Source of the DNA: a virus
Lineage: Duplodnaviria > Caudoviricetes
IMG/VR virus record: IMGVR_UViG_3300044541_000063
Coordinates: 11,819-75,818 of that record
DNA length: 64,000 bases
Direction: 5' to 3' (one strand)
The first letter of the stretch is position 1, and every line of letters begins with the position of its first letter. Under the pieces are notes generated by a model, which saw only the letters and a list, made by a program, of their open reading frames with translations, ran no database searches and was not told where the DNA came from. The position numbers and the translations under genes are program-made. This document shows, piece by piece, positions 5,914 through 42,051 of this stretch.

Positions 5914-7977
5914 GTGGCGCGGCAGTCCACGAAGTACACGTACAAGAGTAAGTCTGAGAACAAGACTTACTACAACGTCGGCGGCAGCCAGCTGCCGATG
6001 TTCCTCCCCGACTCGACATGGGCGATGCCGACGGAGCTGCCAGACCTCCGTCGCGTCAAGCGCGTGGCACTCGACCGCGAGTGCAAGGACGACGGTCTCG
6101 CGATGAAGAAGGGACCGGGCTGGGCGACCGGTGCCGGTCACGTGTGCGGCTCGTCCTACGCGTGGCGCGAGGGCGGCGCGCTGCGAAGCATCTACGTCCC
6201 GCTGACGCATCCAGACAGCGAGAACTTCGACGCGGCGCAGCTGGCGCAGTGGGAGCGGGACCTCGACGCGGCCGGCGTCGAGTTCGTCATGCAGAACGCG
6301 CCCTACGACGTGGGATGGGGCAACAGGGACCTCAAGGTACCGTGCCCCAAGAAGGTGCACGACACCACGTGCATGGCGTACATGGTCGACGAGAACAGGC
6401 TCTCGTACCAGCTGGACCAGCTGTGCCGGTGGAAAGGGCTGCCCGGCAAGGACGAGGACCTCCTGCGCGAGGCTGCGGCTTGCTACGGCTGGCAAGGCGA
6501 CGAGGTAAAGGCGCACGTCCACCAGCTGCCGGCGCGCTACGTGGGGCAGTACGCCGAGACTGACGCGGTGCGCACGCTGCAGCTGGCCGAGCTCATCGAG
6601 CCTGACCTGCACGCCCAGGAGGTCTACGAGGCGTACCAGCTGGAGATGGACCTGCTCCCGGTGGTCCACGAGATGCGACGGCGCGGCATACGCGTGAACG
6701 TCGACCGAGCCGTCCAGGTTCAGGCGATGTTCTACGCCAGGGCGGAGGCCGCGTTCAAGGAGCTTCGCGAGAAACTGTGCACCACCGCCATCGGCATCGA
6801 CGAGCTGCGCGACAACCAGTGGCTCGACGACATGTTCACGGCCCAGAAGGTGAGAATACCGCGCGACCACAAGGGCAAGGGCTCGTTCGAGAAGACGTGG
6901 ATGCAAGTCTACGATCACTGGCTCCCCCGGCTGTGTGTCAAGGCCAAGTCGTACTACGAGGCGGCCGACAAGTTCATCGGCAACTACATGCTGGGATACG
7001 CGCACAACGGTCGCATTCACGCGTCGGTGAATCAGTTCAAGTCCGAGGACGGGTACGGCACCAAGACGTATCGGTTCTCGTACTCCGACCCGCCGCTGCA
7101 GCAGTGGCCGTCGCGCGACGAGCTGGCCAGTACGGAGATAAGAGGCTGCCTCGAGGCGGAGCCGGGGGATAAGTGGGGCAAGAATGACTACAGCCAGCAG
7201 GAGTATCGGCTGATCGTGAGCTACGCCGTGATGAACGGCCTCGACCGCGCGCAGGAGGCGGCCGACCAGTACATCAACGACCCGAAGACCGACTTTCACA
7301 GCATGGTCGCCGAGATGACTGGCCTCGACCGCAAGCCTGCCAAGGACACGAACTTCGCCAAGTCGTACGGCGCCGGCATACCGAAGTTTGCGACCATGAT
7401 CAACAAGCCGCTGGCCGAGGCCGAGGCGATCATGAAGCAGTACGATGAGAAGATGCCGTTCAACGCTCAGCTGAACCAGAAGTGCCAGAAGCTCGCCGAG
7501 CAGCGCGGATACATGGTGCTGCTCGACAAGGCGCGTATTCACTTCGACAACTGGGAGCCGACGTGGTTGTCAAAGGACGAGCGCTCTGCAGGCTACGCAC
7601 CGGGTAGTCCATATAAGATGAATCCCTGCGGTCTCGAGGAGGCGCGCGCCCGGCTGCAGCAGCAGGGCCATCCGTGGTTTCACAAGCGTCTGCGGCGCGC
7701 CGACTGCCGCAAGGCGATGAACTCGCTCATTCAGGGCGGCGCGGCGCGACAGACGAAGCTGGCCATGCGCGCCATCTACCGCGAGGGGCAGGTTCCTCTT
7801 CTTCAGATGCACGACGAGCTGAACTTCAGCTTCGCACGCGAGAAGGACGCCAAGATGGTGGCCACCGTCATGCGCGACGTCGTCAAGCTGAAGGTTCCGA
7901 TGATGGTCGACGCCGGCTACGGTCCCTCGTGGGGCGCGGCGAAGAAGTCGTGGAGGGAGGCGAAGGCCGCCAAGTAG
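5914..7977 (+). CDS. polA: DNA polymerase, family A, with 3'-5' exonuclease
   Basis: ExoI DRE, ExoII NAPYD, ExoIII YAETD; motif A DYSQQEYR, motif B RKPAKDTNFAKSYG (Phe762 type), motif C MHDEL. Confidence 0.95.
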   Translation: MARQSTKYTYKSKSENKTYYNVGGSQLPMFLPDSTWAMPTELPDLRRVKRVALDRECKDDGLAMKKGPGWATGAGHVCGSSYAWREGGALRSIYVPLTHPDSENFDAAQLAQWERDLDAAGVEFVMQNAPYDVGWGNRDLKVPCPKKVHDTTCMAYMVDENRLSYQLDQLCRWKGLPGKDEDLLREAAACYGWQGDEVKAHVHQLPARYVGQYAETDAVRTLQLAELIEPDLHAQEVYEAYQLEMDLLPVVHEMRRRGIRVNVDRAVQVQAMFYARAEAAFKELREKLCTTAIGIDELRDNQWLDDMFTAQKVRIPRDHKGKGSFEKTWMQVYDHWLPRLCVKAKSYYEAADKFIGNYMLGYAHNGRIHASVNQFKSEDGYGTKTYRFSYSDPPLQQWPSRDELASTEIRGCLEAEPGDKWGKNDYSQQEYRLIVSYAVMNGLDRAQEAADQYINDPKTDFHSMVAEMTGLDRKPAKDTNFAKSYGAGIPKFATMINKPLAEAEAIMKQYDEKMPFNAQLNQKCQKLAEQRGYMVLLDKARIHFDNWEPTWLSKDERSAGYAPGSPYKMNPCGLEEARARLQQQGHPWFHKRLRRADCRKAMNSLIQGGAARQTKLAMRAIYREGQVPLLQMHDELNFSFAREKDAKMVATVMRDVVKLKVPMMVDAGYGPSWGAAKKSWREAKAAK

Positions 7978-8073
7978 AAATTCTATTTTACTGCCAGCAT
8001 ATTACACCCGCGTTAAAAACGCGAGCCCGCGCATGGCTGACATGCGTTACCCTGAATACCCTCAATATAATGA

Positions 8074-8102
8074 TTGCGTGCCTCCTACCGGTAGGGTAGT
8101 CT
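8074..8102 (+). promoter_or_regulatory. Sigma70-type promoter with a palindromic operator in the spacer
   Basis: TTGCGT-17 bp-TAGTCT; CCTACCGGTAGG palindrome at 8084-8095; AT-rich upstream region. Confidence 0.55.
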
Positions 8103-26429: not shown

Positions 26430-29400
26430 ATGTCTGTGAGCAACGTTCACCCGCTTCCGGGCCGCGTCGACAGTCCTATCCTGGACACGCTCGTCAACTT
26501 GCTGTCGGGTCTCGGCACGGCCAAGGACAAGAGCACGTCGACGCAGTTCACGCTGCAGATACTCGATCCTGGACAGCTGCTAGCCGCGTATCGCGGCGAC
26601 TGGGTAGCGCGCAAGATCATCGACTGTCCAGCGCAGGACTCCACTCGCGAGTGGCGCTCGTGGCAGGCCGACAAGAAGGACATCACCGAGATCGAGAAGA
26701 CCGAGAAGGACCTCAAGCTCCAGTCGAAGGTCAAGGTCGCCATGCAGCGCGCCCGTCTGTGGGGCGGCGCGGCTCTCATCCTCGGCGTGGACCAGGGCTC
26801 GCATGACAAGGAGCTCAAGGTCGATCGCGTCAGGCAGGGTCAGCTGAAGTACGTTCACGTGGTGAACAAGCAGGACATTCAAGTAGACGGCGGCCTCGAC
26901 CTCGACGTCACGTCCGAGTTCTACGGCGAGCCTGTGTCGTACACCGTCAACAGTCCGAAGACCGGCATAGTCAAGATCCATCCGTCGCGCGTCATCAGGT
27001 TCCTGGGCAACGAGATCCCCGACATAAACCTGTCGCAGGACGGATGGGGCGACAGCACGCTGCAGAGTATCTACGACGCGGTGATACAGGCCGGGCAGAC
27101 CGCCGCCAACGTGGCCAGCCTAGTGAACGAGGCCAAGATCGACGTCGTTCAGATACCGGGCCTCATGCAGATGATGGGGACGCAGGAGTACCGCGCGAAG
27201 CTCATCGAGAGGTTCACGCTTGCGAACTCTATGAAGTCCCTCACCAACACTCTGATCCTCGACGGCGAGGAGGAGTGGAACAGGCTCAACGCGTCGTTCG
27301 CAGGTCTGCCAGACATCATCCGCATGTATCTGCTCATGGCCAGTGGTGCCGCTGACATTCCCGCCACGCGTCTACTCGGTCAGTCCTCTTCGGGCCTCAA
27401 CGCCACTGGCCAAGAAGATACTCGCAACTACTACGACAGGCTGGCGAGTGAGCAGACCAACGACCTCACGCCTCGCCTGGACAGGCTCGACGAGGTGCTG
27501 GTACGCAGCACCTTCGGCGACAAGCCCGAGGAGATGACGTACGACTGGAACTCGCTGTGGCAGCTGTCCAAGACCGAGGCCGCAGACGTGGCGGTGAAGA
27601 AGGCCACGGTGTACACGGCAGACGTCAACGCCGGGCTGCTCCCACCGGAGGTCATGCGCGAGGGTCGCGAGAACCAGCTCATCGAGGATCAGGTGTATCC
27701 CGGCCTCGAGCAGGCCATCGACGAGTATGGCCAGCAGAACCTCGACGAGTACAATCAGGCCGTCGTCGCGCAGATGGGCGCGCGCGCCGCTCTCATGGCG
27801 CCGGACGATCCCAACGACCCGAACGGCGGCAAGAAGAAAGCAGCTGCGGCCAAAGCAGAGCTCACTCGCCGCAAGGCTCTACCTCCGCCGCGTCCCCCGG
27901 CTGCGCGCTCGCAGGACTCGCGAGAGAGGGTTGTCTACACGTCCAATCCTAGAGGCGATGGTAGTGACTGGCTCTTCGCGTTCGACAAGGCCAACGCGGC
28001 CATCTGGAAGGACGGAGGTCCTTACCCAGAGCCGAGGTTCGCAGAGGACGAGACCACGCCTCGCAGCCTGTACGTGCGCCGCGACGTGCTCAACGGCGAG
28101 GAGATACTCGCGCACTTCGCAGAGCAGGGCGTCGACGTGAGCGGTGTCGAGCCGGAAGACCTTCACGTCACCGTGTTGTACTCCAGGCAGCCCGTCGACT
28201 GGATCAAGATGGGCGAGTCCAGCTACGGTCAGATCGGGCGCGGCGAGGACATGCCTGAGGGCTGCGACATGTGCGTGCGCGCCGGCGGACCGCGCGTGAT
28301 GGAGGCGTACGGCGTTCCTCCCGACACGCTCGTCATGTGCTTCGCGTCGAGCGCGCTGTGCTGGCGTCACCAGGACATGGTCTATAAGGGCGCGAGCGAG
28401 GACTACGAGTTTAGTCCGCACCTGAGCATCGCTCCGTGGGACGGCACCGACCCGCGCACGTACGAGGCGTTTCAGGGAGAGATCGAACTCGGCCCGGAGA
28501 TCTTCGAGCCGTGCAAGTCGGGCGGCGCCGGGGGCGAGGCGTACGACTACGACCCCTCCGAGCCGCGCGCGCAGGCCGGTACGGCGTTCGGCGGACAGTG
28601 GACACGCGAGGGTGCCGCGGCGGCGCGGCAGTCTCGAATCGACAAGACCCTGGCGACGCGGAGCGAGAGAGCTAAAGGCGACGTTGGCGCGCGTCTCAAG
28701 CGCACGCGCGAGGCCGCAGTGGCCAAGTCCAAGCGCGTCACGGCAGCTGCCGTGCACAAGGCAGTCGCGTTCCTGAAGAACAACGAGAGGCGCTCGAAGA
28801 GCATCGGCGCGCTGGCTGCGTCGCTGTCTGGCATGCTCGCAGGCGTCGACCACGTCACAGAGGCCATGATTCATCAGGCGGTGTCGGACTTCTCGTCTAC
28901 GCTGGGCGTCACTGTCGCGGTGGGACGCACCAAGATGCGCGAGGCCCTCAACAAGGCCATCAAGATACGTCGCGGTCTCACGGGCGACGCGGAGGAGCCT
29001 GAGGCCGAGGACGAGGTTCTCCAGACGCTGCTCGCGCTGCTGAAGATGCTCGACGCCACTGCCGCAGACGCCCTCATCAAGGACTGGCGCGGCACTGTCG
29101 GCGACTACAGTCCAGATCAGCCGCGCGTGCCGAGAGGCAGCGAGGGAGGCGGTCGCTTCGCGACCAGCGGCGGTGCGTACACGGGCGTTCTCGAGAAGGC
29201 CGGCATGTTCGTGAGGTTCGTCAAGGCCAGGCGACTGGAGTCTGGTCGCGGCTACAACGCGTTCTACAAGAAGAACGACTTGAACCCGTCGGGCAATCCG
29301 CAGACCGTAGAGGTCGGTCAGCAGGTGCGCGGCGTGAAGGGCAAGTGGAACAAGAACACCGACCACGCCGGCGACTACGCGGCCGGCTCGGGCTGGCTGC

Positions 29401-29714
29401 TGCTGCAGGAGTTCTCGGAGATGGGTCGGTTCGCCGATCAGTTCTGGAGGGACGCCGCTCAGTTCATGACTCCCGGCGAGTACGAGCGCGCCAAGCCGTA
29501 CTTCAGCACGCGCACCAGGGCATTCGTAGAGGGCTTCCGCGCCACGTACTCTCCGAACGGCAAGGCGTTCGGCCTGAGCAGGGCGCGCACGTCCGAGGTG
29601 TTCGGCAGGGCCACGTCGAACATGTCGTCGGGCATCGACCAGATATTCGCGCCTCCCAAGCCGGGTCTCATCGAGCGCACCGGCGAGCGCATCGCCAAGT
29701 TCTTCGGAGTGTAG
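26430..29714 (+). CDS. Portal protein (DUF1073/HI1409 family) fused to an Acb1-like 2H phosphoesterase and two tagged unknown domains
   Basis: N-terminal ~440 aa portal (YRGDWVARKIID, AADIPATRLLG); LHVTV/PHLSI 2H motifs; two D-Y-x-P-x2-PR..GG-x-W/F tags. Confidence 0.9.
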   Translation: MSVSNVHPLPGRVDSPILDTLVNLLSGLGTAKDKSTSTQFTLQILDPGQLLAAYRGDWVARKIIDCPAQDSTREWRSWQADKKDITEIEKTEKDLKLQSKVKVAMQRARLWGGAALILGVDQGSHDKELKVDRVRQGQLKYVHVVNKQDIQVDGGLDLDVTSEFYGEPVSYTVNSPKTGIVKIHPSRVIRFLGNEIPDINLSQDGWGDSTLQSIYDAVIQAGQTAANVASLVNEAKIDVVQIPGLMQMMGTQEYRAKLIERFTLANSMKSLTNTLILDGEEEWNRLNASFAGLPDIIRMYLLMASGAADIPATRLLGQSSSGLNATGQEDTRNYYDRLASEQTNDLTPRLDRLDEVLVRSTFGDKPEEMTYDWNSLWQLSKTEAADVAVKKATVYTADVNAGLLPPEVMREGRENQLIEDQVYPGLEQAIDEYGQQNLDEYNQAVVAQMGARAALMAPDDPNDPNGGKKKAAAAKAELTRRKALPPPRPPAARSQDSRERVVYTSNPRGDGSDWLFAFDKANAAIWKDGGPYPEPRFAEDETTPRSLYVRRDVLNGEEILAHFAEQGVDVSGVEPEDLHVTVLYSRQPVDWIKMGESSYGQIGRGEDMPEGCDMCVRAGGPRVMEAYGVPPDTLVMCFASSALCWRHQDMVYKGASEDYEFSPHLSIAPWDGTDPRTYEAFQGEIELGPEIFEPCKSGGAGGEAYDYDPSEPRAQAGTAFGGQWTREGAAAARQSRIDKTLATRSERAKGDVGARLKRTREAAVAKSKRVTAAAVHKAVAFLKNNERRSKSIGALAASLSGMLAGVDHVTEAMIHQAVSDFSSTLGVTVAVGRTKMREALNKAIKIRRGLTGDAEEPEAEDEVLQTLLALLKMLDATAADALIKDWRGTVGDYSPDQPRVPRGSEGGGRFATSGGAYTGVLEKAGMFVRFVKARRLESGRGYNAFYKKNDLNPSGNPQTVEVGQQVRGVKGKWNKNTDHAGDYAAGSGWLLLQEFSEMGRFADQFWRDAAQFMTPGEYERAKPYFSTRTRAFVEGFRATYSPNGKAFGLSRARTSEVFGRATSNMSSGIDQIFAPPKPGLIERTGERIAKFFGV

Positions 29715-30151: not shown

Positions 30152-30226
30152 CAGAGGGACTCCAGCGAGAGTCTCCGGTACGGAAGGGGCGAGGAAACTA
30201 ATCCTCACAACATGGGAGTTAGGACA

Positions 30227-30991
30227 ATGCGATTTCTTCTTGCTATCGTTCTCGGCGCCTTCGGCACTGCCGCGTTCGCGGCCGACATGCCGCTCAAGGC
30301 GCCGCGCGCAGCACCAGTCGTCGTCGACGGCTGGCAGGGACTCTACGTCGGCATCCAGGGCGGCGAGAACCTCGGCTCGTACAATCCGCTGTTCGGCGTC
30401 GGCGACGTGGCCACGAAGGTCAACCTCGACGACAACGCGCCGTTCGTCGGTGCTCACATCGGCTACCTGTTCGGCGACACCATCTACTTCGGCCCAGAGC
30501 TCGGCGTTCAGTACTGGAACTTCAAGAAGAAAGGCGATCTGGTGGCCGGCACGCCAGAGATTCCTCCGAGCGAGGAGCTTCCGGCCATCGCCGCGACGCC
30601 GGCCGTGCAGCTGCAGCAGACCATCGACTGGATGGTCTACGCCAACGTTCGTGTCGGCGCCTCGCTGATCCCGAACACTCTGATCTACGTCACGGGCGGC
30701 GCCGCGTGGGCGCACGTGCGCGGCGAGATTCTCAACGGCGGCACGCTGGGCGCGCTGTCGGCGTTCGACCAGGGCGTTCTCGGGTGGAACGTGGGTGCCG
30801 GCCTCGAGTTCAAGCTCGGACCTAACCTCGTGCTCGGCGCCGAGTATCGGCACATGGACTTCGGCAAGGTGTCGCCGGCTAATCCAGCGCTGGCTCTCAT
30901 CGGGCTGGCACCGGCCGCACTCACGGTCGATCAGGCCATGGGGCGTCTGTCGTGGCGCTTCGCTCCTGGCGGCGGCTACGCTCAGTACTGA
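30227..30991 (+). CDS. Outer-membrane beta-barrel protein, Omp25/Omp31/RopB family
   Basis: Signal peptide ending AFA-ADMPLKAP, WQGLYVGIQGG, GWNVGAGLEF, GAEYRHMDFG, C-terminal LSWRF. Confidence 0.9.
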   Translation: MRFLLAIVLGAFGTAAFAADMPLKAPRAAPVVVDGWQGLYVGIQGGENLGSYNPLFGVGDVATKVNLDDNAPFVGAHIGYLFGDTIYFGPELGVQYWNFKKKGDLVAGTPEIPPSEELPAIAATPAVQLQQTIDWMVYANVRVGASLIPNTLIYVTGGAAWAHVRGEILNGGTLGALSAFDQGVLGWNVGAGLEFKLGPNLVLGAEYRHMDFGKVSPANPALALIGLAPAALTVDQAMGRLSWRFAPGGGYAQY

Positions 30992-30992
30992 C

Positions 30993-32492
30993 GTGCTACT
31001 GACTTCGCACCACCGCTGCGTCCGGCCGCGCCTTGGGGTCGCGGTCTCAGACGCGGCGCGCGCGCGAACCGACCCGACGGGCACTGCTCCTATCGCCTCC
31101 CGATGGGACGCAGAGTTCGCCAGGAGGTTCGCGCGCGTCAAGCGCGTGCTGCACGAGGTGATCGTGACACGCGACACGCTCGGAATAAGCGACGATCTCA
31201 AGAAGAGGGTAGACGCATCAGTCGGGGGAGCGACCAGGGCGCAGCGCGCGGCGCGCGCCCTGGACCTCGTTCGCTCGGCGGTGCACTCCGAGATTCTGGG
31301 CTCCCCCGGCTACGCCGACTCGTGGCAGAACAAGTTCGTCGCGATGGCCGTGACCAAGGGCGTCACCGACGCGTACCGGCGCATGAAGCAGGCCGGCATG
31401 GACGTGACCCTGGAGCTCACGGTGGACGTCGGCATAGGCCAGTCGGCGCAGCGGCGCGCGGACTTCATCGCTCAGCAGAGCTACGATCTGCTCGAGGGCA
31501 TCGACGCCGACATGGCGGCGCAGATGCAGGACATCATTCAGCAGGGTCTCCTGGACGGCAAGAGTCCGCAGCAGATAGCGCGCGAGCTTGACCAGGAGCT
31601 GGACATCGGTCGCACGCGCGCGCGCACCATAGCGCGCACCGAGACCATCGGCGCTCACGCCGACGCAACGCTCGACTCGTACGAGGAGGGCGGCATCGAG
31701 GGCGTTCAGGCCGAGGTGGAGTTCGCCACGGCCGGTGACGACAACGTCTGTCCGCAGTGTCAAGCGCTGGAGGGCAGTACCTACACCATCGAGGACGCGC
31801 GCGACGTCATTCCAGTGCACCCGAACTGTCGGTGCGCTTGGTTGCCGGTGATCGCCAGCACCGCGGACGCAGTCACCATAGACTACGACCCGAGCGAGCC
31901 GCGCGTGCCGGCCGGCAGTGCCGAGGGCGGCGAGTGGACCAGCGAGGGCGGTGCTGGCAGCGCGCCGGGAGTCGAGGGCAGCGGCGGCGACGCGTCTAAG
32001 CAGAGAGCGCTCGACGTGGCCAAGGAGCTCAAGTTCTCTCCCAAGAAGATGGAGTTCTCCGACGAGAACAAAAAGTTCTCAGTGGCCGGCAAGCGCATGA
32101 CGAAGGGCGGCGAGTACGACCCGGCTACCGGGAAGGTGACGTTCTTCTCGCACAACGTGAGTCCGGAGGACGCCGAGCTGATAGCGGCGCACGAGATCAC
32201 CCACTCGATGTATCACGACTACTTCGGCTCCGAGGGATACCAGGAGCCGCTGATACATCTGTTCGGCAGCTACGCCACGTTCGCCAGGGAGGGCGGCGTC
32301 GACGAGTACAGCAATCAGTGGTGGAAGGCTGTCGGCGAGGGAAGGGCCAGACCTGAGCAGGCCATAAACGAGACGCTCGCGTCCATGGCCTCCATTCAGT
32401 ACACCACCGGGAAGGTGGTCGGCGGCCCCGAGCATCAGGCGCTGCTCAAGAGAATACAGCGCTATCGCGGCGTGAGCGGGACCAAGAAGTGA
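30993..32492 (+). CDS. MuF/SPP1 gp7-like head morphogenesis protein with a tagged C-terminal zincin metallopeptidase
   Basis: DPTGT start, IARTE, ATAGDDNVCPQC..HPNCRC; tag DYDPSEPRVPAG..GGEW; AHEITH..NETLA. Confidence 0.9.
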   Translation: MLLTSHHRCVRPRLGVAVSDAARARTDPTGTAPIASRWDAEFARRFARVKRVLHEVIVTRDTLGISDDLKKRVDASVGGATRAQRAARALDLVRSAVHSEILGSPGYADSWQNKFVAMAVTKGVTDAYRRMKQAGMDVTLELTVDVGIGQSAQRRADFIAQQSYDLLEGIDADMAAQMQDIIQQGLLDGKSPQQIARELDQELDIGRTRARTIARTETIGAHADATLDSYEEGGIEGVQAEVEFATAGDDNVCPQCQALEGSTYTIEDARDVIPVHPNCRCAWLPVIASTADAVTIDYDPSEPRVPAGSAEGGEWTSEGGAGSAPGVEGSGGDASKQRALDVAKELKFSPKKMEFSDENKKFSVAGKRMTKGGEYDPATGKVTFFSHNVSPEDAELIAAHEITHSMYHDYFGSEGYQEPLIHLFGSYATFAREGGVDEYSNQWWKAVGEGRARPEQAINETLASMASIQYTTGKVVGGPEHQALLKRIQRYRGVSGTKK

Positions 32493-34894
32493 GTGTTCGT
32501 CGCACCAAGGTCAACGGCGAGAGCGTTCTGCTGGCGCAGGTCAGTCCGACTCTGTGGAAGGTCGTGTATCCAGACGGCCGCGCGGTGTTTCTGGTTCCTG
32601 AGGCGGAGGCGAACGATGGCATCAGCTGGCACGAGGAGGATCACCCGCGAGGCGAGGGCGGCAAGTTCGCCACCGTCGGGCACGAGTCTCTTACTGGGCA
32701 GGAGCAGCAGAGTATCTACTACTACGCGCGACAGGCGTATCACGGACTGAACCGCAATCTTCGCCTCGGTCTGGGACTCAGCGAGCAGCAGGAAATTTGG
32801 AAGCGCGACCTCGACTCGGCGCTGGAGAAGTCGACGCTTGCGCAGGACATGACGGTCTATCGTGGCTTCGGCAACATGAAGCTCATCCGCGACATGAAGG
32901 AGGGAGACGTTCTCCGCAACGCCGCGTACACGTCGACTGCTCCAGACGCGAGGACCGCAACCTCGTTCAAGGACTTCAGCGAGGGTCTCCTGGAGATCTC
33001 GCTGCCGGCCGGCACCAGGGCGCTCGACGTGCATCGGGTCTCGAGCATGGAGCCGGAGATTCTGCTTCCTCGCGACACTTCGCTGAGGTACGTGGGCAGA
33101 GGTGAGCCGGCCGGTGTTGGCAGCGCGCCTGCGCGCACGTATAAGTTTGAGCTCGTGGCCAGCAGCGTCAGGGACTGGAGTCCCTTCCAGCCTCGCGTGC
33201 CGAAGGGTCAGTCTGGCGGCGGGCAGTGGTCCGGGGAGAACCTGACCAAGGCCGAGAGGGCCGAGGTGCGATACTACACTGGCGACGGGTTCGAGCACGT
33301 CAACTCGACGCTGCGGCAGGGCGAGGCCGGCATGCTCGACCGACTGCATCTGCTGGACAGCGCCGTGGCCAAGTCGGTCATAGACAAGAGCATCACGACG
33401 TATCGCGGCGTCAACAGCGCCGAGTTCACCGAGAAGCTCGACTCGCTGCAGCCGGGCGAGACCATCACCGACAGGGCGTTCACGTCTACGTCGGGCAGCT
33501 TTCTGTCGGCGGCCATGTACGGTGGAGTAGGATCCCCGACCATGGAGATCAGGATTCCGTCTGGCAGCAGCGTGCTCTACGCCGAGAGCATGAGCGCCAA
33601 CTCCGGAATAGGCGAGGAGGAGTACCTTCTGCCCCGCGACTCGACGTTCAGGTACGTCGGCTCGAGGACTGTGGGCGGCGGTGCCGGCGCCTCGAAGGGA
33701 AGCAAGGTCTACACGTTCGACCTAGTGCCGCGCGTTGTCAAGGACTACGACCCGAGCGAGCCGCGCGTACCGGCCGGGCAGCCGGGCGGCGGACAGTGGC
33801 AAGGCCAGAATCTGGGCGATGACGAGAAGAAGCAGGTTCGTTTCTACACGCGCAATGGATACACTCCGATTAATAAGTCCTTGCGCACTGGTACCGGGCC
33901 AGAATACCTGAAGGACGTCGTCGCGACGATAGACAGTGCCATCGCGAAGTCGGTGCTGTCGAGCGACACTGTCGTCTATCGTGGCGTTAACGCAGTGGGA
34001 TTCGTTAGCGCTTTAGGTGCCCTCAAGCCGGGAGACACGATCACTGACTCAGCATACGTGTCGACTTCTGGTTCGTTGGCGTCCGCTGCGACGTTCGCAG
34101 GAACATACAACACGGTGATGGAGGTCAGGCTTCCGGCAGGCAGCAACGCACTCTATGTCGAGGAGTTCAGCGGAAGCAGTGGTCAGGAAGAAGATGAATA
34201 TATTCTGCCGCGCGGCACTAAGTTTCAGTACGTTACCAGCAGGGTCACCAGGACGAAGAGGACTATCTACACGTTCGACCTCGTGCCGCGCGGCGCGGCC
34301 GACTGGAACCCATTCCAGCCGCGCGTTCCCGCGGGGCAGCACGGCGGCGGCGAGTGGACCGAGGGCACCAGCGGCACGGCAACCGGATCTCTCGTCGGCG
34401 GCAATCCCAAGAAGGGCTTCGACCCGAAGCACGTCGACGCGCTCAAGCAGTACGCTGCCAGCATCTATCAGCCGGTGAACGAGGGTCTGCGCAACAAGAC
34501 GAAGCTGCGGACCCAGGAGGAGCAGGTCGTTTTGGCACTCGACGAGGCGTTCGAGCGCAATCAGCGTACCACCGAGGTGATGCAGCTGTTTCGCGCGGCG
34601 GGCGAGGAGTTCGCGGCCTACGTGGACGCACTCAAGGTCGGCGACAACCTGATAGACGAGGGATTCGCGTCGACCACCACCGACGAGAGACTGGCGCGCT
34701 CGTTCCTCAGCGGGCAGCCGGGCGAGAAGAAGGTGATGGTTGAGATCGTCCTTCCGAAGGACTCGAAGGCCATCGACACGTCGCCGTTCAATCCCTTCAA
34801 GGGAGAGAACGAGGTGCTGCTGCCGCGCAACACCACGTTCAAGTATCTCGGCATGGAGCGAGACGTGTATCGCTTCAGGGCCAATCCAAGGTAG
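32489..34894 (+). CDS. Polyprotein of four tandem ADP-ribosyltransferase (VIP2/C3/Alt-like, R-S-E) domains, each preceded by the tag
   Basis: YRG/YRG/YRG/FRA, TST/TST/VST/AST and EPE/EEE/EDE/ENE-x-LLPR motifs. Confidence 0.9.
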   Translation: MSVRRTKVNGESVLLAQVSPTLWKVVYPDGRAVFLVPEAEANDGISWHEEDHPRGEGGKFATVGHESLTGQEQQSIYYYARQAYHGLNRNLRLGLGLSEQQEIWKRDLDSALEKSTLAQDMTVYRGFGNMKLIRDMKEGDVLRNAAYTSTAPDARTATSFKDFSEGLLEISLPAGTRALDVHRVSSMEPEILLPRDTSLRYVGRGEPAGVGSAPARTYKFELVASSVRDWSPFQPRVPKGQSGGGQWSGENLTKAERAEVRYYTGDGFEHVNSTLRQGEAGMLDRLHLLDSAVAKSVIDKSITTYRGVNSAEFTEKLDSLQPGETITDRAFTSTSGSFLSAAMYGGVGSPTMEIRIPSGSSVLYAESMSANSGIGEEEYLLPRDSTFRYVGSRTVGGGAGASKGSKVYTFDLVPRVVKDYDPSEPRVPAGQPGGGQWQGQNLGDDEKKQVRFYTRNGYTPINKSLRTGTGPEYLKDVVATIDSAIAKSVLSSDTVVYRGVNAVGFVSALGALKPGDTITDSAYVSTSGSLASAATFAGTYNTVMEVRLPAGSNALYVEEFSGSSGQEEDEYILPRGTKFQYVTSRVTRTKRTIYTFDLVPRGAADWNPFQPRVPAGQHGGGEWTEGTSGTATGSLVGGNPKKGFDPKHVDALKQYAASIYQPVNEGLRNKTKLRTQEEQVVLALDEAFERNQRTTEVMQLFRAAGEEFAAYVDALKVGDNLIDEGFASTTTDERLARSFLSGQPGEKKVMVEIVLPKDSKAIDTSPFNPFKGENEVLLPRNTTFKYLGMERDVYRFRANPR

Positions 34895-34907: not shown

Positions 34908-35066
34908 GTGGCGAAGAAAGTGAAGAAGCAGTCAGAAGAGGAGGCTCGTCGCCGATTCGGCGAGCGTATCACGGAGCAGACCGGCGAGGGTCTGATAATC
35001 GAGCGCCAGGACGGTACGCGCGAGCGCATCGGCAAGGGCGGCAAGCTCGAGAAGATCGAAGACTGA
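34908..35066 (+). CDS. Small charged protein (52 aa)
   Basis: AAGGAGG RBS before GTG. Confidence 0.6.
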   Translation: MAKKVKKQSEEEARRRFGERITEQTGEGLIIERQDGTRERIGKGGKLEKIED

Positions 35067-37060: not shown

Positions 37061-38734
37061 GTGGCCGGATCAGTCTACCGCGTACCGCCGCCGGTCTTCG
37101 TCGGCGGGCAGCAGCCCTATCAAGCAAGGGACCTGTCGCCCGCCTTCGAGGCGGTGCCTGTAGACGCGCCTCCAGTCAGGAGGGCGCAGCCGCCGTTTCA
37201 CTCGTCGTGGTGGGCCGTCGCGCTGTCGCCTCAGCAGCGCTCGGACTCTGACATGTCGTCCGGGATACCGGGGCAGTCGGTTGACAATCCGCCAGCTGCT
37301 CGCTCGACCATTCCATCGTCGGCGTGGTGGCTGAGCACTCCAGCGCCGACGCAGCTACGAGATCTCTCGCCTGGAATTCCTGGCCAGTCGGTGGACAATC
37401 CACCGGCCGCGCGCTCTGCCGTGCCGCCCTCGGCGTGGTGGCTCACGGTACCAACGCCGACGCAGCTGCGCGACATGGCTCCGGGAATCCCGGGTCAGTC
37501 GGTAGACAATCCGCCCGGCCTGCAGGCGCGCACTCCTGCTCCGCAGCCGGTTCCGTTCTTCGACGTTCAGCGCCGCTATCTCGTGCAGGAGTTCGTCGCC
37601 GCTGCGGCGGACAGCACGCCCTTCGCGCGGGTCGTTGACAGTGTAATTCGCTCGTGGCAGCGCGAGCAGCCGCTTCCGACACTGCCGAGACTGCTGAGTC
37701 CCTCCATCACCGCGGTGCCGGAGGACTCGCCGATTCCGATGCACGCCGGTCGCACGCCGCTGCAGGTGCAGCTCACGGCGTGGTTCGCGGGCGTGCTGCC
37801 GTACCGACCGGCTCAGTTCGTCACGCACACTGCGGCACCTCCTGGATGGTCGGTCGACGACCCTCCACGCTTCAGGGCGTTCGTCGTTCCGCCGCAGCCG
37901 CCGACTCCGCTTCAGGTGCAGTACCCGAAGCTGGTTCAGGAGAGCGTGGCTGCAGCTGCGGCCGATCAGTCGTACGCGCGCGAGACTCTGGCGCTGCGGT
38001 GGTGGGTGGTCCAGGCGGCTCCCCCGGTGCTGCCGCGCCTGCTCTCGCCCGGCGTGCCGGGGCAGTCCGCAGACGCGCCGCCTCCTGCGCGACTGCAGCA
38101 GCCGGCGGCCGTGCACTACGCCGCTCAGCCGCTCGCGCCAGTGCGGCAGCAGCTGTCGCCCGGCATACCGGGCCAGTCGGTGGACCCGCCGCCGTCCATA
38201 GTCTCGCGCATGCCCGCGCGCGCGTGGTACGACGGTCTGTATCCCGGCGCGCAGCGCCAGCCGGGGGCTGCGGCGCTTGCTCAGCAGGCGCAGGTGGACT
38301 TTGCGCCCGTGTCGCTGCGAGGTGCGGGCTGGAGCGTCGCTCACTGGTTCGCGCCGTACGTGGCGCCGCAGCGGCATCGGCCGCTGTTTCCTGCGGCTCT
38401 CGCGGTGCGGGTCGACGATCCGCCCTTCGACGCTCGGCGTCTGGGGCGGCTGGCCAGCATCATCGCGCGGGCGCAGATACCGACGCCCGACAGGGTCTAT
38501 CTGCGCTACGAGGTGCAGGAGGGACCGGCGTTTACTCTGCTGACGCTGGTCTGCGGCAGCATCACGATCAGCGCCTCGACGAACGCACTCTTGTCGACCG
38601 CGCCAGCCGTGCTGGCTGCTACGTCTACGACACCAGTCGCTTCTGCCGCTCCCTCGTCCGCGCCGGCAACTTCGGCGGAGACGTCGACCGAGCCGGCAGT
38701 GGGCGGCGAGCCAGGAATAGAGATCTGCGAGTGA
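37061..38734 (+). CDS. Pro-rich repetitive protein (PGIPGQSVDNPP repeats)
   Basis: AGGAG RBS before GTG; tandem ~37-aa units plus degenerate copies. Confidence 0.7.
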   Translation: MAGSVYRVPPPVFVGGQQPYQARDLSPAFEAVPVDAPPVRRAQPPFHSSWWAVALSPQQRSDSDMSSGIPGQSVDNPPAARSTIPSSAWWLSTPAPTQLRDLSPGIPGQSVDNPPAARSAVPPSAWWLTVPTPTQLRDMAPGIPGQSVDNPPGLQARTPAPQPVPFFDVQRRYLVQEFVAAAADSTPFARVVDSVIRSWQREQPLPTLPRLLSPSITAVPEDSPIPMHAGRTPLQVQLTAWFAGVLPYRPAQFVTHTAAPPGWSVDDPPRFRAFVVPPQPPTPLQVQYPKLVQESVAAAAADQSYARETLALRWWVVQAAPPVLPRLLSPGVPGQSADAPPPARLQQPAAVHYAAQPLAPVRQQLSPGIPGQSVDPPPSIVSRMPARAWYDGLYPGAQRQPGAAALAQQAQVDFAPVSLRGAGWSVAHWFAPYVAPQRHRPLFPAALAVRVDDPPFDARRLGRLASIIARAQIPTPDRVYLRYEVQEGPAFTLLTLVCGSITISASTNALLSTAPAVLAATSTTPVASAAPSSAPATSAETSTEPAVGGEPGIEICE

Positions 38735-40248: not shown

Positions 40249-42051
40249 ATGAATAAGACCAAGCGCGCCAAGGCAGGCGACAACTGGGACGAGAGCGCTC
40301 ACCCGCGCGCGCCGAAGGGCGGCGCCGGGGGAGGGCAGTTCGCAGGAGGCCAGACTGCGGGCGGCATCGACCAGGGCGAGGTCGGCTCCGGCTGGCATCC
40401 AGAGAAGGACAACACCTACGCCGGCCGCAAGCCGGACGAGGCGAAGTTCGGGCGCAGCAACGAAGACTTCAGCCTGACCGACGAGGACGAGCAGTTCGTC
40501 GAGGACCACGGCGAGGCGTTCGTGCCGGTGCTCAACGAGCTGTTCCAGGAGTACGATGCCGCGCCTGCAGACGTCGAGAATTTCATGGAAGAGATGAACC
40601 TCAGCGACAGCACCGACACGGCGGCAGCCGACGTCCTCACGGCGTTTCACAACAGCTACGTCGGCACGTTCGAGGACACCGATGCGGCGGCGGAGAACTT
40701 CATTCACGAGACGTACCCGCGCCTACCGAAGGCGTTCACCGACGCCATCAGCAGAAGCGACCTCAGCGACAGTCTGTTCTACAACAAGGGCTCGCCGTAC
40801 GCTGCTGTCGAGTCTGACAGTGGCGAGTACATGGTCTTCAAGAAGCCGGCGTCGATGGTCTCGCGAACCAAGGACGCGAAGCCGCTGGCGTTCGAGGTCG
40901 ACAGCGTGAACCTGGAGAACACTCTGCAGCTGATCGGAGTCAACGACGACGGCGCCGCGCTGGTGCTCGACGAGGGCGCGAACATCCACCGCACGGCTGA
41001 CGGCTATCTGGCGGCCTTCCCCCGGATAGCCAGAACCGGAATTCAGGTCTATCGCGGCTACGAGATGGGCGCTCCCGACAAGGACAAGGTGCGCATCTAC
41101 AGGCCGGAGAGCGAGGTCTTCGCGCCCGACAGCCTGCGGTCGTACGCGCACAAGCCCGTGACCAACGACCATCCGAAGGAGGCGGTCACCAAGGACAATT
41201 GGCGCAAGTACGCCGTCGGCAACATGGCAGACGAGATCATGCGCGACGGCGGGTTCGTTCGCATTCCTATGATGATCTCTGACGGCGACGCCATCCAGGA
41301 CGTCGAGGACGGCAAGCGTGAACTCTCGCTTGGCTACACGATGGACCTCGACATGACGCCGGGCAAGACGGAGGACGGCGAGTCCTACGACGGGGTCATG
41401 AGAAACATACGAGCCAATCATCTGGCGCTGGTCACCGCCGCCAGAGGTGGAAAGGAACTCAGGGTCGGTGACTCAGGAGAAGGAGCTATCATGAAGAAGA
41501 TCGTAGTTGACGGCAACACCATCGAGGTCGACGACGTTGCGGCCGTCATCGTTCCGAAGCACATCGCGATGCTGGAGAAGAGCACCGCCGACGCAGCCAC
41601 CGCCCTCAAGGTCGCGCAGGACAAGACGGCTGCCGACACGGCTACCATCGCCACCCTGACGGCCGAGAACGCGACCCTGGTGAAGAAGGTCGCCGACGCG
41701 AAGCTCTCGCCGCAGCAGATCGAGCAGCTGGTGCGCGACCGCGCCGTGGTCGTCACTCAGGCGCGCGCCGTGCTGCCGACCGTCGTCACCGACAGCCGCG
41801 AGCTCTGCGACATTCGTCGTCAGGTCGTGGACGCTGCCATGGGTGCCGCGGCCAAGGGCTGGAACGACGAGCAGGTCGCGTCGTCCTTCGCCGTTCTCAC
41901 CAAGGACGTCGACACCAGGGCGAACGAGACTCAGGACAGTCTCAGGACTGCTCTCAGCCAGCCTGGTCCTCGAGTCGACGCGCGCGACGCGGCGTACGGC
42001 GAGTACGAGAACAAGCTGACCAACGCCTGGAAGAAGCCGGTCGCCGCCTAG
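40249..42051 (+). CDS. Head maturation protease/scaffold (DUF2213) with an N-terminal tag and ArdA-like acidic domain
   Basis: IARTGIQVY, VYRP-like RIYRPESEVF, KPVTNDHP, ELSLGY, NHLALV..ARGG; coiled-coil scaffold C-terminus; N-terminal WDESAHPRAPKG..GGQF. Confidence 0.9.
   Translation: MNKTKRAKAGDNWDESAHPRAPKGGAGGGQFAGGQTAGGIDQGEVGSGWHPEKDNTYAGRKPDEAKFGRSNEDFSLTDEDEQFVEDHGEAFVPVLNELFQEYDAAPADVENFMEEMNLSDSTDTAAADVLTAFHNSYVGTFEDTDAAAENFIHETYPRLPKAFTDAISRSDLSDSLFYNKGSPYAAVESDSGEYMVFKKPASMVSRTKDAKPLAFEVDSVNLENTLQLIGVNDDGAALVLDEGANIHRTADGYLAAFPRIARTGIQVYRGYEMGAPDKDKVRIYRPESEVFAPDSLRSYAHKPVTNDHPKEAVTKDNWRKYAVGNMADEIMRDGGFVRIPMMISDGDAIQDVEDGKRELSLGYTMDLDMTPGKTEDGESYDGVMRNIRANHLALVTAARGGKELRVGDSGEGAIMKKIVVDGNTIEVDDVAAVIVPKHIAMLEKSTADAATALKVAQDKTAADTATIATLTAENATLVKKVADAKLSPQQIEQLVRDRAVVVTQARAVLPTVVTDSRELCDIRRQVVDAAMGAAAKGWNDEQVASSFAVLTKDVDTRANETQDSLRTALSQPGPRVDARDAAYGEYENKLTNAWKKPVAA

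Follow-up and report, generated by a model that had tools for sequence, protein, structure and literature searches.

The T4 protein Alt, an ADP-ribosyltransferase (ART), is packaged in the head of the phage and enters the host by injection, and ARTs fused to MuF or portal proteins have been predicted to be packaged likewise (PMC5512222, PMC9503650). MuF- and portal-fused ARTs of the Alt/VIP2 kind have been described by comparative genomics (PMC9503650, PMC5576092), and the polyvalent proteins reported by Iyer et al. (2017) include one, from a Pseudomonas aeruginosa prophage, in which ART copies reach 12 (PMC5512222). The gain from placing several such enzymes in one chain is unstudied. Here we describe a compact case, an array of four ART modules of distinct types with intact catalytic residues, encoded by a single gene (32489–34894, + strand) of an uncultured phage; its relatives differ in module number and are either free or fused to MuF. 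Positions are those of the window, i.e. the whole stretch of 64,000 nucleotides that was analysed, corresponding to bases 11819–75818 of the 75.8-kb IMG/VR record IMGVR_UViG_3300044541_000063.

The source record is complete, with direct terminal repeats, a G+C content of ~63% and nearly every gene on the + strand. An earlier note on this DNA had pointed to four tandem ARTs, each preceded by a short peptide tag, in a stand-alone gene next to MuF, and had called the arrangement unusual. The analysis given below suggests that the array is probably a virion-packaged, host-injected multi-enzyme effector in the manner of T4 Alt.

Domain content and catalytic residues of the array protein

The open reading frame (ORF) of the array gene is open for 801 amino acids (aa), a chain of ~88 kDa. 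Its first codon, GTG, and the last codon of the MuF gene upstream, TGA, overlap in the sequence GTGA. The product (P0001) begins with a leader (aa 1–45), followed by tag 1, module 1, tag 2, module 2, tag 3, module 3, tag 4 and module 4. The Pfam family PF03496 (ADPrib_exo_Tox) matches P0001 in four stretches (whole-protein E 1.1e-84), and a six-frame search of the phage genome with the same family returned four separate matches of 63.0–82.7 bits, against a cut-off of 23.4 bits, and none elsewhere. Module 1 (32684–33169, 68.2 bits) matches the ExoT structure 6gnn in sequence; module 2 (33236–33739, 67.8 bits) is followed by module 3 (33806–34297, 82.7 bits) and by module 4 (34388–34891, 63 bits), which also matches PF01129. 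All are on the + strand.

Each module carries the catalytic residues of R-S-E enzymes. The arginine lies in YRG motifs at residues 124, 305 and 497 and in FRA at 701 (R125, R306, R498 and R702), the serine in STA at 149, STS at 333 and 525 and STT at 728, and the Glu-x-Glu loops read EPE at 188, EEE at 376, EDE at 568 and ENE at 773. Pfam, motif positions, structure-database matches and alignment thus agree with the four R-S-E domains and catalytic motifs of the earlier note. In module 1 it had given the serine motif as TST; a serine motif is present, but the aligned catalytic triplet is STA, the T-S-T-A stretch having been misread. The LLPR-type ending claimed for each domain was also found, [IL]LPRx[TS]x[FL]xY standing after all four Glu-x-Glu loops. 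An alignment of 39 sequences (the four modules and 35 homologues) shows the arginine, the serine and the second glutamate to be invariant, with the first glutamate at least 90% conserved.

Sequence matches in the PDB were Plx2A, ExoT, the C3 exoenzymes and VIP2. An AlphaFold2 (AF2) model was built from the 39-row alignment for tag 3, module 3 and tag 4, module 3 being the one module so modelled. The mean predicted local distance difference test score (pLDDT) of the model was 84, with a core above 90, and both tags were below ~60. Using Foldseek, the model was matched to C3bot1 and Plx2A (E 5e-13, probability 1.0, TM 0.63–0.68) and to VIP2 (E 3e-12), also one of the top matches, and Certhrax (the two spanning E 3e-12 to 1e-11). 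Fold prediction, which the earlier note had named as a possible source of refutation, therefore matches the ART fold in module 3; the model confidently assigns this module a C3/VIP2-type fold, with flanking tags predicted to be disordered. A single-sequence AF2 prediction of the whole 801-aa protein was uninformative (pLDDT 36). The PHROG matches carry the names ‘ADP-ribosyltransferase exoenzyme toxin’ and ‘Alt-like RNA polymerase ADP-ribosyltransferase’ (E 1e-29).

The Pfam, motif, alignment, fold and PHROG evidence therefore confirms the observation. Judged by their sequences, the four domains are all genuine R-S-E ARTs of predicted activity whose loops are of the Glu-x-Glu kind, and from this loop we infer arginine specificity.

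Relatives, module types and multi-ART arrays

Relatives of the array gene occur both free and fused to head proteins. P0004 (808 aa, 63% identical) has the same leader and four modules, its module 2 being 77% identical to that of P0001. P0005 is a stand-alone protein with the same leader and three modules, and P0014, identical to the gene of L124, an 8.7-kb IMG/VR fragment, has the same leader and two modules. In P0006 and P0007 a MuF domain is followed directly by four ART modules, and in P0008 by two. The MuF domain of the fused relatives is homologous to MuF of the present phage across the whole N-terminal and core region, and its end occupies the position of the leader. A further JGI metagenome protein, P0009 (1188 aa), is a stand-alone, mixed chain of tagged payloads in which Acb1 is followed by a tag and by three ARTs. 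The proteins P0010, P0011 and P0013 are portals bearing a tag and one ART, and their ARTs group outside the module types A–D described below. On L124, genes for a portal-Acb1 protein (63% identical) and a MuF protein with an HExxH domain (75%) accompany the two-module array, which stands behind the same leader and is followed by a small ORF (78% identical). From these layouts it follows that module number and order vary among close relatives, with the link to the head machinery remaining constant. The description of the array as stand-alone is accordingly right for this gene, which lacks a MuF domain, but does not extend to the close relatives in which the same modules are fused to MuF.

The leader itself (32489–32623, +; MSVRRTKVNGE..VSPTLWKVVYP..; ~45 aa) is strongly conserved at the N-terminus of P0004, P0005, P0014 and L124. 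The stand-alone arrays all open with one sequence of ~40 aa, MSVRRTKV[DN]GE..AQVSPTLWKVVYP..., which matched no Pfam family and for which single-sequence AF2 suggested four short strands (pLDDT 50–60). A programmed frameshift joining MuF and the array was considered and rejected, because the array genes of the relatives start with their own ATG and the same leader.

Pairwise identity among the four modules is 26–33%, with the exception of modules 2 and 3 (46%). A maximum-likelihood tree was calculated for 47 modules from 18 proteins by a quick search, with SH-aLRT (Shimodaira–Hasegawa-like approximate likelihood ratio test) values as its only support, and in it the modules cluster by type and not by protein. 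Module 1 (type A, with a short ARTT loop) groups with module 1 of P0004 and module 3 of P0007 (SH-aLRT 95). Module 2 (type B) lies within an eight-member clade and module 3 (type C) stands beside module 2 inside a 12-member clade (SH-aLRT 99 each), while module 4 (type D, with an insert in the PN loop) belongs to a ten-member clade (SH-aLRT 99) in which every member is the last module of its protein. Three of the four modules are closer to counterparts in other phage proteins. In a fifth type, found as module 1 of P0006 and P0007 right behind MuF, Q-x-E replaces E-x-E, a change which would point to another acceptor residue.

The ARTT loop, which precedes E-x-E, and the PN loop, which comes after S-T-S, vary in length and sequence between types and are kept within a type among phages that are only 50–77% identical. 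In C3-like enzymes these two loops recognise the substrate. The tree thus indicates that the four modules are old paralogues of distinct types, and their type-specific loops suggest, indirectly, that the modules may have different targets or separate specificities. Taken together, the types and their loops argue against a recent amplification for dosage alone.

With the whole array protein as query no relative was found in IMG/VR, and with the type-D module alignment one was found, namely L124. Scans of metagenomes and of GTDB (185,579 species genomes) found none, and tblastn of 50,697 deposited phage genomes with P0001 and a nine-ART metagenomic protein gave only single-domain matches of at most 33% identity. 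A word-index search with one module returned only two small homologues. The exhaustive profile search gave 4233 hits, and the counts given here refer to the best 150 of these, a ranking that favours multi-domain proteins. Among those 150, most hold at least two ART domains and some up to ten; the R-S-E-x-E signature is intact in 325 of 410 modules, including 8/8 in P0020 and 7/7 in P0029. Since metagenomic proteins hold up to ten such domains, the array is not singular, and the four-ART gene is an R-S-E multi-ART, tag-delimited payload protein rather than an oddity. Calling it unusual was an overstatement, as arrays of 2–10 mostly intact domains of this clade are frequent among metagenomic proteins and 12-copy arrays of the HYD clade have been published (PMC5512222). 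Neither the tag nor an R-S-E multi-ART array was found described in a literature search, itself incomplete and no proof of absence.

As a separate observation, five AT-rich metagenomic proteins of 2100–4300 aa (P0017, P0020, P0021, P0029 and P0032), encoded on contigs of 67–150 kb, have 7–10 ADPrib_exo_Tox domains with mostly intact R-S-ExE residues and carry neither the tag nor any other recognised domain.

The tag, the head-gene setting and the proposed delivery

The tag of ~19 aa has the consensus D[WY]xPx[EQ]PRVPxGxxxGGxW, and a tag was found before each of the four modules, as claimed. Tag 1 (32624–32674, aa 46–62, SWHEEDHPRGEGGKF) is the W-x-E-x-HPRxxGGKF (HPR) variant and was located by the peptide pattern; tags 2 (33173–33229, aa 229–247, DWSPFQPRVPKGQSGGGQW), 3 (33743–33799, aa 419–437, DYDPSEPRVPAGQPGGGQW) and 4 (34301–34357, aa 605–623, DWNPFQPRVPAGQHGGGEW; model pLDDT 38–50) were located by both the peptide and the DNA pattern, all on the + strand. 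The two variants swap at equivalent places in relatives: P0004 has DWDESQHPRDDRGKF in the place equivalent to tag 1, and in P0007 the HPR variant likewise stands before a type A module. The strict DNA pattern for PRVPxGxxxGGxW matched four times in the window, with 0.00 matches expected from 100 shuffles, and a looser peptide pattern gave eight tags, two in the portal, one in MuF, four in the array and one in the protease. These DNA copies are 62–81% identical, with one identical run of 26 nt, common to tag 3 and the MuF tag at 31881. As the DNA copies are only 62–81% identical, selection acts on the peptide; a main role of the tag as recombination hotspot was rejected for its conservation at the protein level.

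The other tagged proteins of the window are head proteins. Around the array the genes run TerL, portal-Acb1, MuF, ART array and, farther on, protease and major capsid protein. The portal gene (26430–29714, +; PF06381 E 1e-104) encodes 1094 aa, with an Acb1 anti-CBASS domain (PF23474 E 3e-19, Pfam) and two further tagged domains, and has tags at 28563 and 29121; portal and array are parts of one tagged-cargo system. MuF, an SPP1 gp7-like head protein (30993–32492, +; PF04233 E 8e-16; phrog_758), adjoins the array upstream, as the earlier note had it; comparison with P0008 makes the GTG at 30993 its probable start. In this protein a tag at 31881–31937 is followed by a C-terminal domain with an HExxH motif (HEITH, 32190–32204). 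For these C-terminal 175 aa (31965–32489) no Pfam family was found (M78 E 0.15), and leads in the Atlas (LPD23, ATLF, M90) stayed below 0.9; the domain may be a processing peptidase or another effector. Downstream of the array lie a 52-aa ORF, several unassigned ORFs, the 600-aa DUF2213 prohead protease/scaffold (40249–42051, +; phrog_530 E 8e-91; PF09979 E 2e-53) and the major capsid protein. The protease has its tag near the N-terminus (40303–40341) and is a candidate processing enzyme.

The portal is ~42% identical to those of Rhizobium phages (genus Kleczkowskavirus), some Pseudomonas phages and cyanophages, and Rhizobium phage RHEph04 has the same order of head genes, with TerL, portal, MuF and then the DUF2213 protease. 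At the DNA level no deposited phage matched the region by megablast. Neither RHEph04 nor Pseudomonas phage phiPSA1, both cultured relatives, contains the tag pattern, and for this reason no published virion proteomics could be linked to it.

Outside the window, tblastn of a 27-aa tag against phages gave no match. An exact-pattern scan of IMG/VR found the tag in at least 120 stretches, nearly all of them in frame; their consensus is K[YF][ND]P[DN][QE]PRVPAGNPDGGQWT. Among the matches listed, which comprise 109 tag-bearing ORFs, 31 are PF04860 portals and others hold Mu-type portal, MuF or S78 protease domains. In IMG/VR the tag mainly separates a portal from a toxin-like domain or opens a small cargo protein. 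On the cargo side, with toxin or anti-defence domains, the same ORFs contain CdiA-CT RNase A (13), NUDIX, Acb1, Zeta toxin and ART domains, and further barnase-like RNase, deaminase, MazF and HipA domains. The median length after the last tag is 175 aa, and at least seven ORFs have the tag no more than 15 aa from their earliest possible start; P0030, for instance, starts MAGKQPRVPKG, with the tag at its N-terminus. QPRVPxGxxxGGxW also occurs in at least 120 species genomes (GTDB), mostly of Alphaproteobacteria (Bosea, Methylobacterium, Xanthobacteraceae, Devosia and Pseudolabrys) and especially of Hyphomicrobiales, with some Actinomycetota. These matches probably lie in prophages, and their alphaproteobacterial distribution hints at the host range of the tag-using phages.

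On the basis of the model and of these positions, we read the tag as a disordered linear motif marking the start of a cargo domain. Its location at the extreme N-terminus of small proteins points to an address label, not merely a cut site; its presence before every module, with ..PR at the module ends, leaves room for processing too. Capsid-targeting sequences of T4 combine both roles, address and cleavage. A stronger version, in which the tags would chiefly be proteolytic sites, the polyprotein being cut by the DUF2213 protease or the HExxH domain into four ARTs of ~20 kDa and packaged by the leader alone, appears rather unlikely to us. It would account for a tag before every module that is modelled as a disordered linker, for the conserved ..PR which closes each module just before a tag or at the C-terminus, and for the presence of a prohead protease and an HExxH domain, both tag-bearing, in the same gene module. 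The prohead protease of T4 cuts Alt and the T4 internal proteins. Peptidase processing of polyvalent proteins has been proposed by Iyer et al. (PMC5512222). However, ~19 well-conserved residues, with an aromatic anchor at each end, far exceed what a cleavage site typically needs, the tag is found beside unrelated protease families, and in several IMG/VR proteins and in P0030 it stands at the extreme N-terminus, where there is nothing to remove. Cleavage at the tags and packaging as an injected effector are not mutually exclusive.

For packaging followed by injection, the sequence of events would be as follows. The array would be made late with the head proteins, translationally coupled to MuF, and would enter the procapsid through the conserved leader and/or the four proline/glycine-rich tags, each tag serving as an address label ahead of a cargo domain. 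At or near the tags it might be divided into separate enzymes, either by the DUF2213 protease or by MuF's HExxH domain, and would be ejected into the cell together with the DNA, as is T4 Alt. At the very start of infection, four distinct arginine-directed mono-ADP-ribosyltransferases would then use host NAD+ to modify different host proteins, be they transcription or translation factors or defence proteins. In this way, a chain of four tag+ART units would multiply the enzymatic payload per packaging slot. The delivery part of this scheme is supported by the MuF- and portal-fused relatives, by the position in the head module and by the shared label. More tentatively, tag and domain might together form a freely concatenable capsid-delivery unit, general in kind, in which the label would suffice for loading whatever domain follows it and perhaps for release, and of which the present payload would be four ARTs, each with its own host factor or defence protein to disable; if so, phages would assemble custom payloads.

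Several points weigh against an injected effector of this kind. The array gene has no MuF or portal domain, so that packaging would have to rest on leader and tags, and a tag before every module exceeds the need for targeting one polypeptide. As the tag accompanies three portal families and two protease families, no single binding partner is obvious. The Glu-x-Glu loop is the only basis for arginine specificity, and some R-S-E enzymes modify nucleic acids. The phage is uncultured, and packaging, ejection, cleavage and enzyme activity are all deduced. Late expression alone would equally fit an enzyme acting in the producing cell. Indeed, the late-gene position and the lack of an own MuF or portal domain could mean that the ARTs are not packaged at all and act late in the producing cell like T4 ModA/ModB, or that some modules modify nucleic acid. 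Pierisin-like R-S-E enzymes modify DNA. The R-S-E enzyme ModB attaches RNA to proteins (PMC9503650). Nevertheless, we regard such an unpackaged role as improbable: the relatives hold the same modules fused to MuF, leader and tags are shared with head proteins, and an address label of head genes brings no advantage to an enzyme that is needed late and at no other time.

The 52-aa ORF behind the array (34908–35066, +) encodes a highly charged protein without a Pfam or PHROG match and has a strong Shine-Dalgarno sequence, GAAGGAGG, 6 nt upstream of its GTG start. A 78% identical copy is found at 7147–7296 of L124, right behind the two-ART gene. The earlier note had mentioned this ORF as the only evident neighbour that might confer immunity; it is a real and conserved ORF, but an immunity role for it would be conjectural. 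That the array is a MuF-type polymorphic toxin for bacterial competition, released in particles or on lysis, with the 52-aa protein as its immunity partner, is very improbable in our estimation, although the small ORF is conserved beside the array, the units of tag and domain look like the cassettes of polymorphic toxins and, in other phages, many classical toxin domains stand behind the tag. Furthermore, there is a precedent in Bxa, an antibacterial MuF-ART of a prophage, which depends on two immunity proteins, a small non-enzymatic one among them (PMC11699363). Against this stand the unlikelihood that one 52-aa protein could neutralise four domains of 26–46% identity and the absence of any relative among the 185,579 species genomes. 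In addition, a search of the complete genome for integrase, resolvase, ARH and Macro genes found none; with its direct terminal repeats and without integrase or resolvase the genome looks virulent, and the lack of all four genes fits a virulent phage turning its ARTs on the host better than a toxin-immunity pair.

Three further features of the head region were recorded. The two tag-preceded domains of the portal (~aa 730–890 and 920–1094) are of unassigned family, and the L124 portal is built likewise. A 259-aa ORF (30212–30991, +) sits between portal and MuF, and its L124 counterpart (7376–8086, 56% identity) comes after the ART gene and the small ORF; this difference is a local rearrangement of gene order inside the head module. 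Lastly, tandem repeats of 111 nt (73% identical) with related copies of 52 nt lie at 37256–37477 and 38031–38193 (+), inside the unassigned ORF 37061–38734.

Comparison with known systems

The closest solved folds are those of the binary toxins VIP2, iota and CDTa, which also contain tandem ART-fold domains in one chain, two in their case. In binary toxins the N-terminal ART copy lacks the catalytic residues and serves as adaptor to the pore-forming B component. All four copies of the array, in contrast, keep R, S and ExE, and no gene resembling a B component was seen near the array.

With the MuF-ART toxins and effectors (Jamet et al., 2017, PMC5576092; Iyer et al., 2022, PMC9503650; Bxa, PMC11699363) the array shares the ART clade and the head-morphogenesis context, and its direct relatives P0006, P0007 and P0008 are MuF-ART fusions. 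It differs in being a separate gene behind a short leader, in a phage whose MuF carries an HExxH-motif domain instead. P0001 has no PF04233 match and thus lacks the N-terminal MuF domain by which MuF polymorphic toxins are defined. Moreover, the published cases have one ART, and nothing like the immunity pair of Bxa is evident here.

The array resembles T4 Alt, an Arg-specific ART of the Alt/VIP2 R-S-E clade, in its R-S-E signature with Glu-x-Glu, in the ‘Alt-like’ PHROG match and in being encoded with virion genes; it is likewise presumed to arrive with the DNA and to modify host proteins as infection begins. Alt has one ART per protein, whereas the array has four paralogous ones, and the address element of the array, a repeated tag together with a leader, is not the T4 way of incorporation. 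The targets of Alt are known. Should each type of module in the array have its own target, the array would chart several weak points or defence nodes of the host together. The label is short and common to other capsid cargo in this phage, such as Acb1 on the portal; if it alone directs loading, it provides a handle on how phages load proteins into capsids.

Finally, the array agrees with the polyvalent proteins (PMC5512222) in having several effector domains, with repeated ARTs, in one phage polypeptide for which packaging and injection are predicted: four ART domains lie in one polypeptide within the head-gene module. The published ARTs belong to the H-Y-[ED] Tox-ART-HYD2 clade. The array, by comparison, consists of ARTs only, all R-S-E and separated by a defined tag; P0001 gave no PF18760 (ART-PolyVal) hit, and only PF03496 and PF01129, both R-S-E families, match it. 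The array corrects the published statement that polyvalent proteins are without R-S-E ARTs and, if it acts as proposed, would be the first documented R-S-E multi-ART polyvalent effector.

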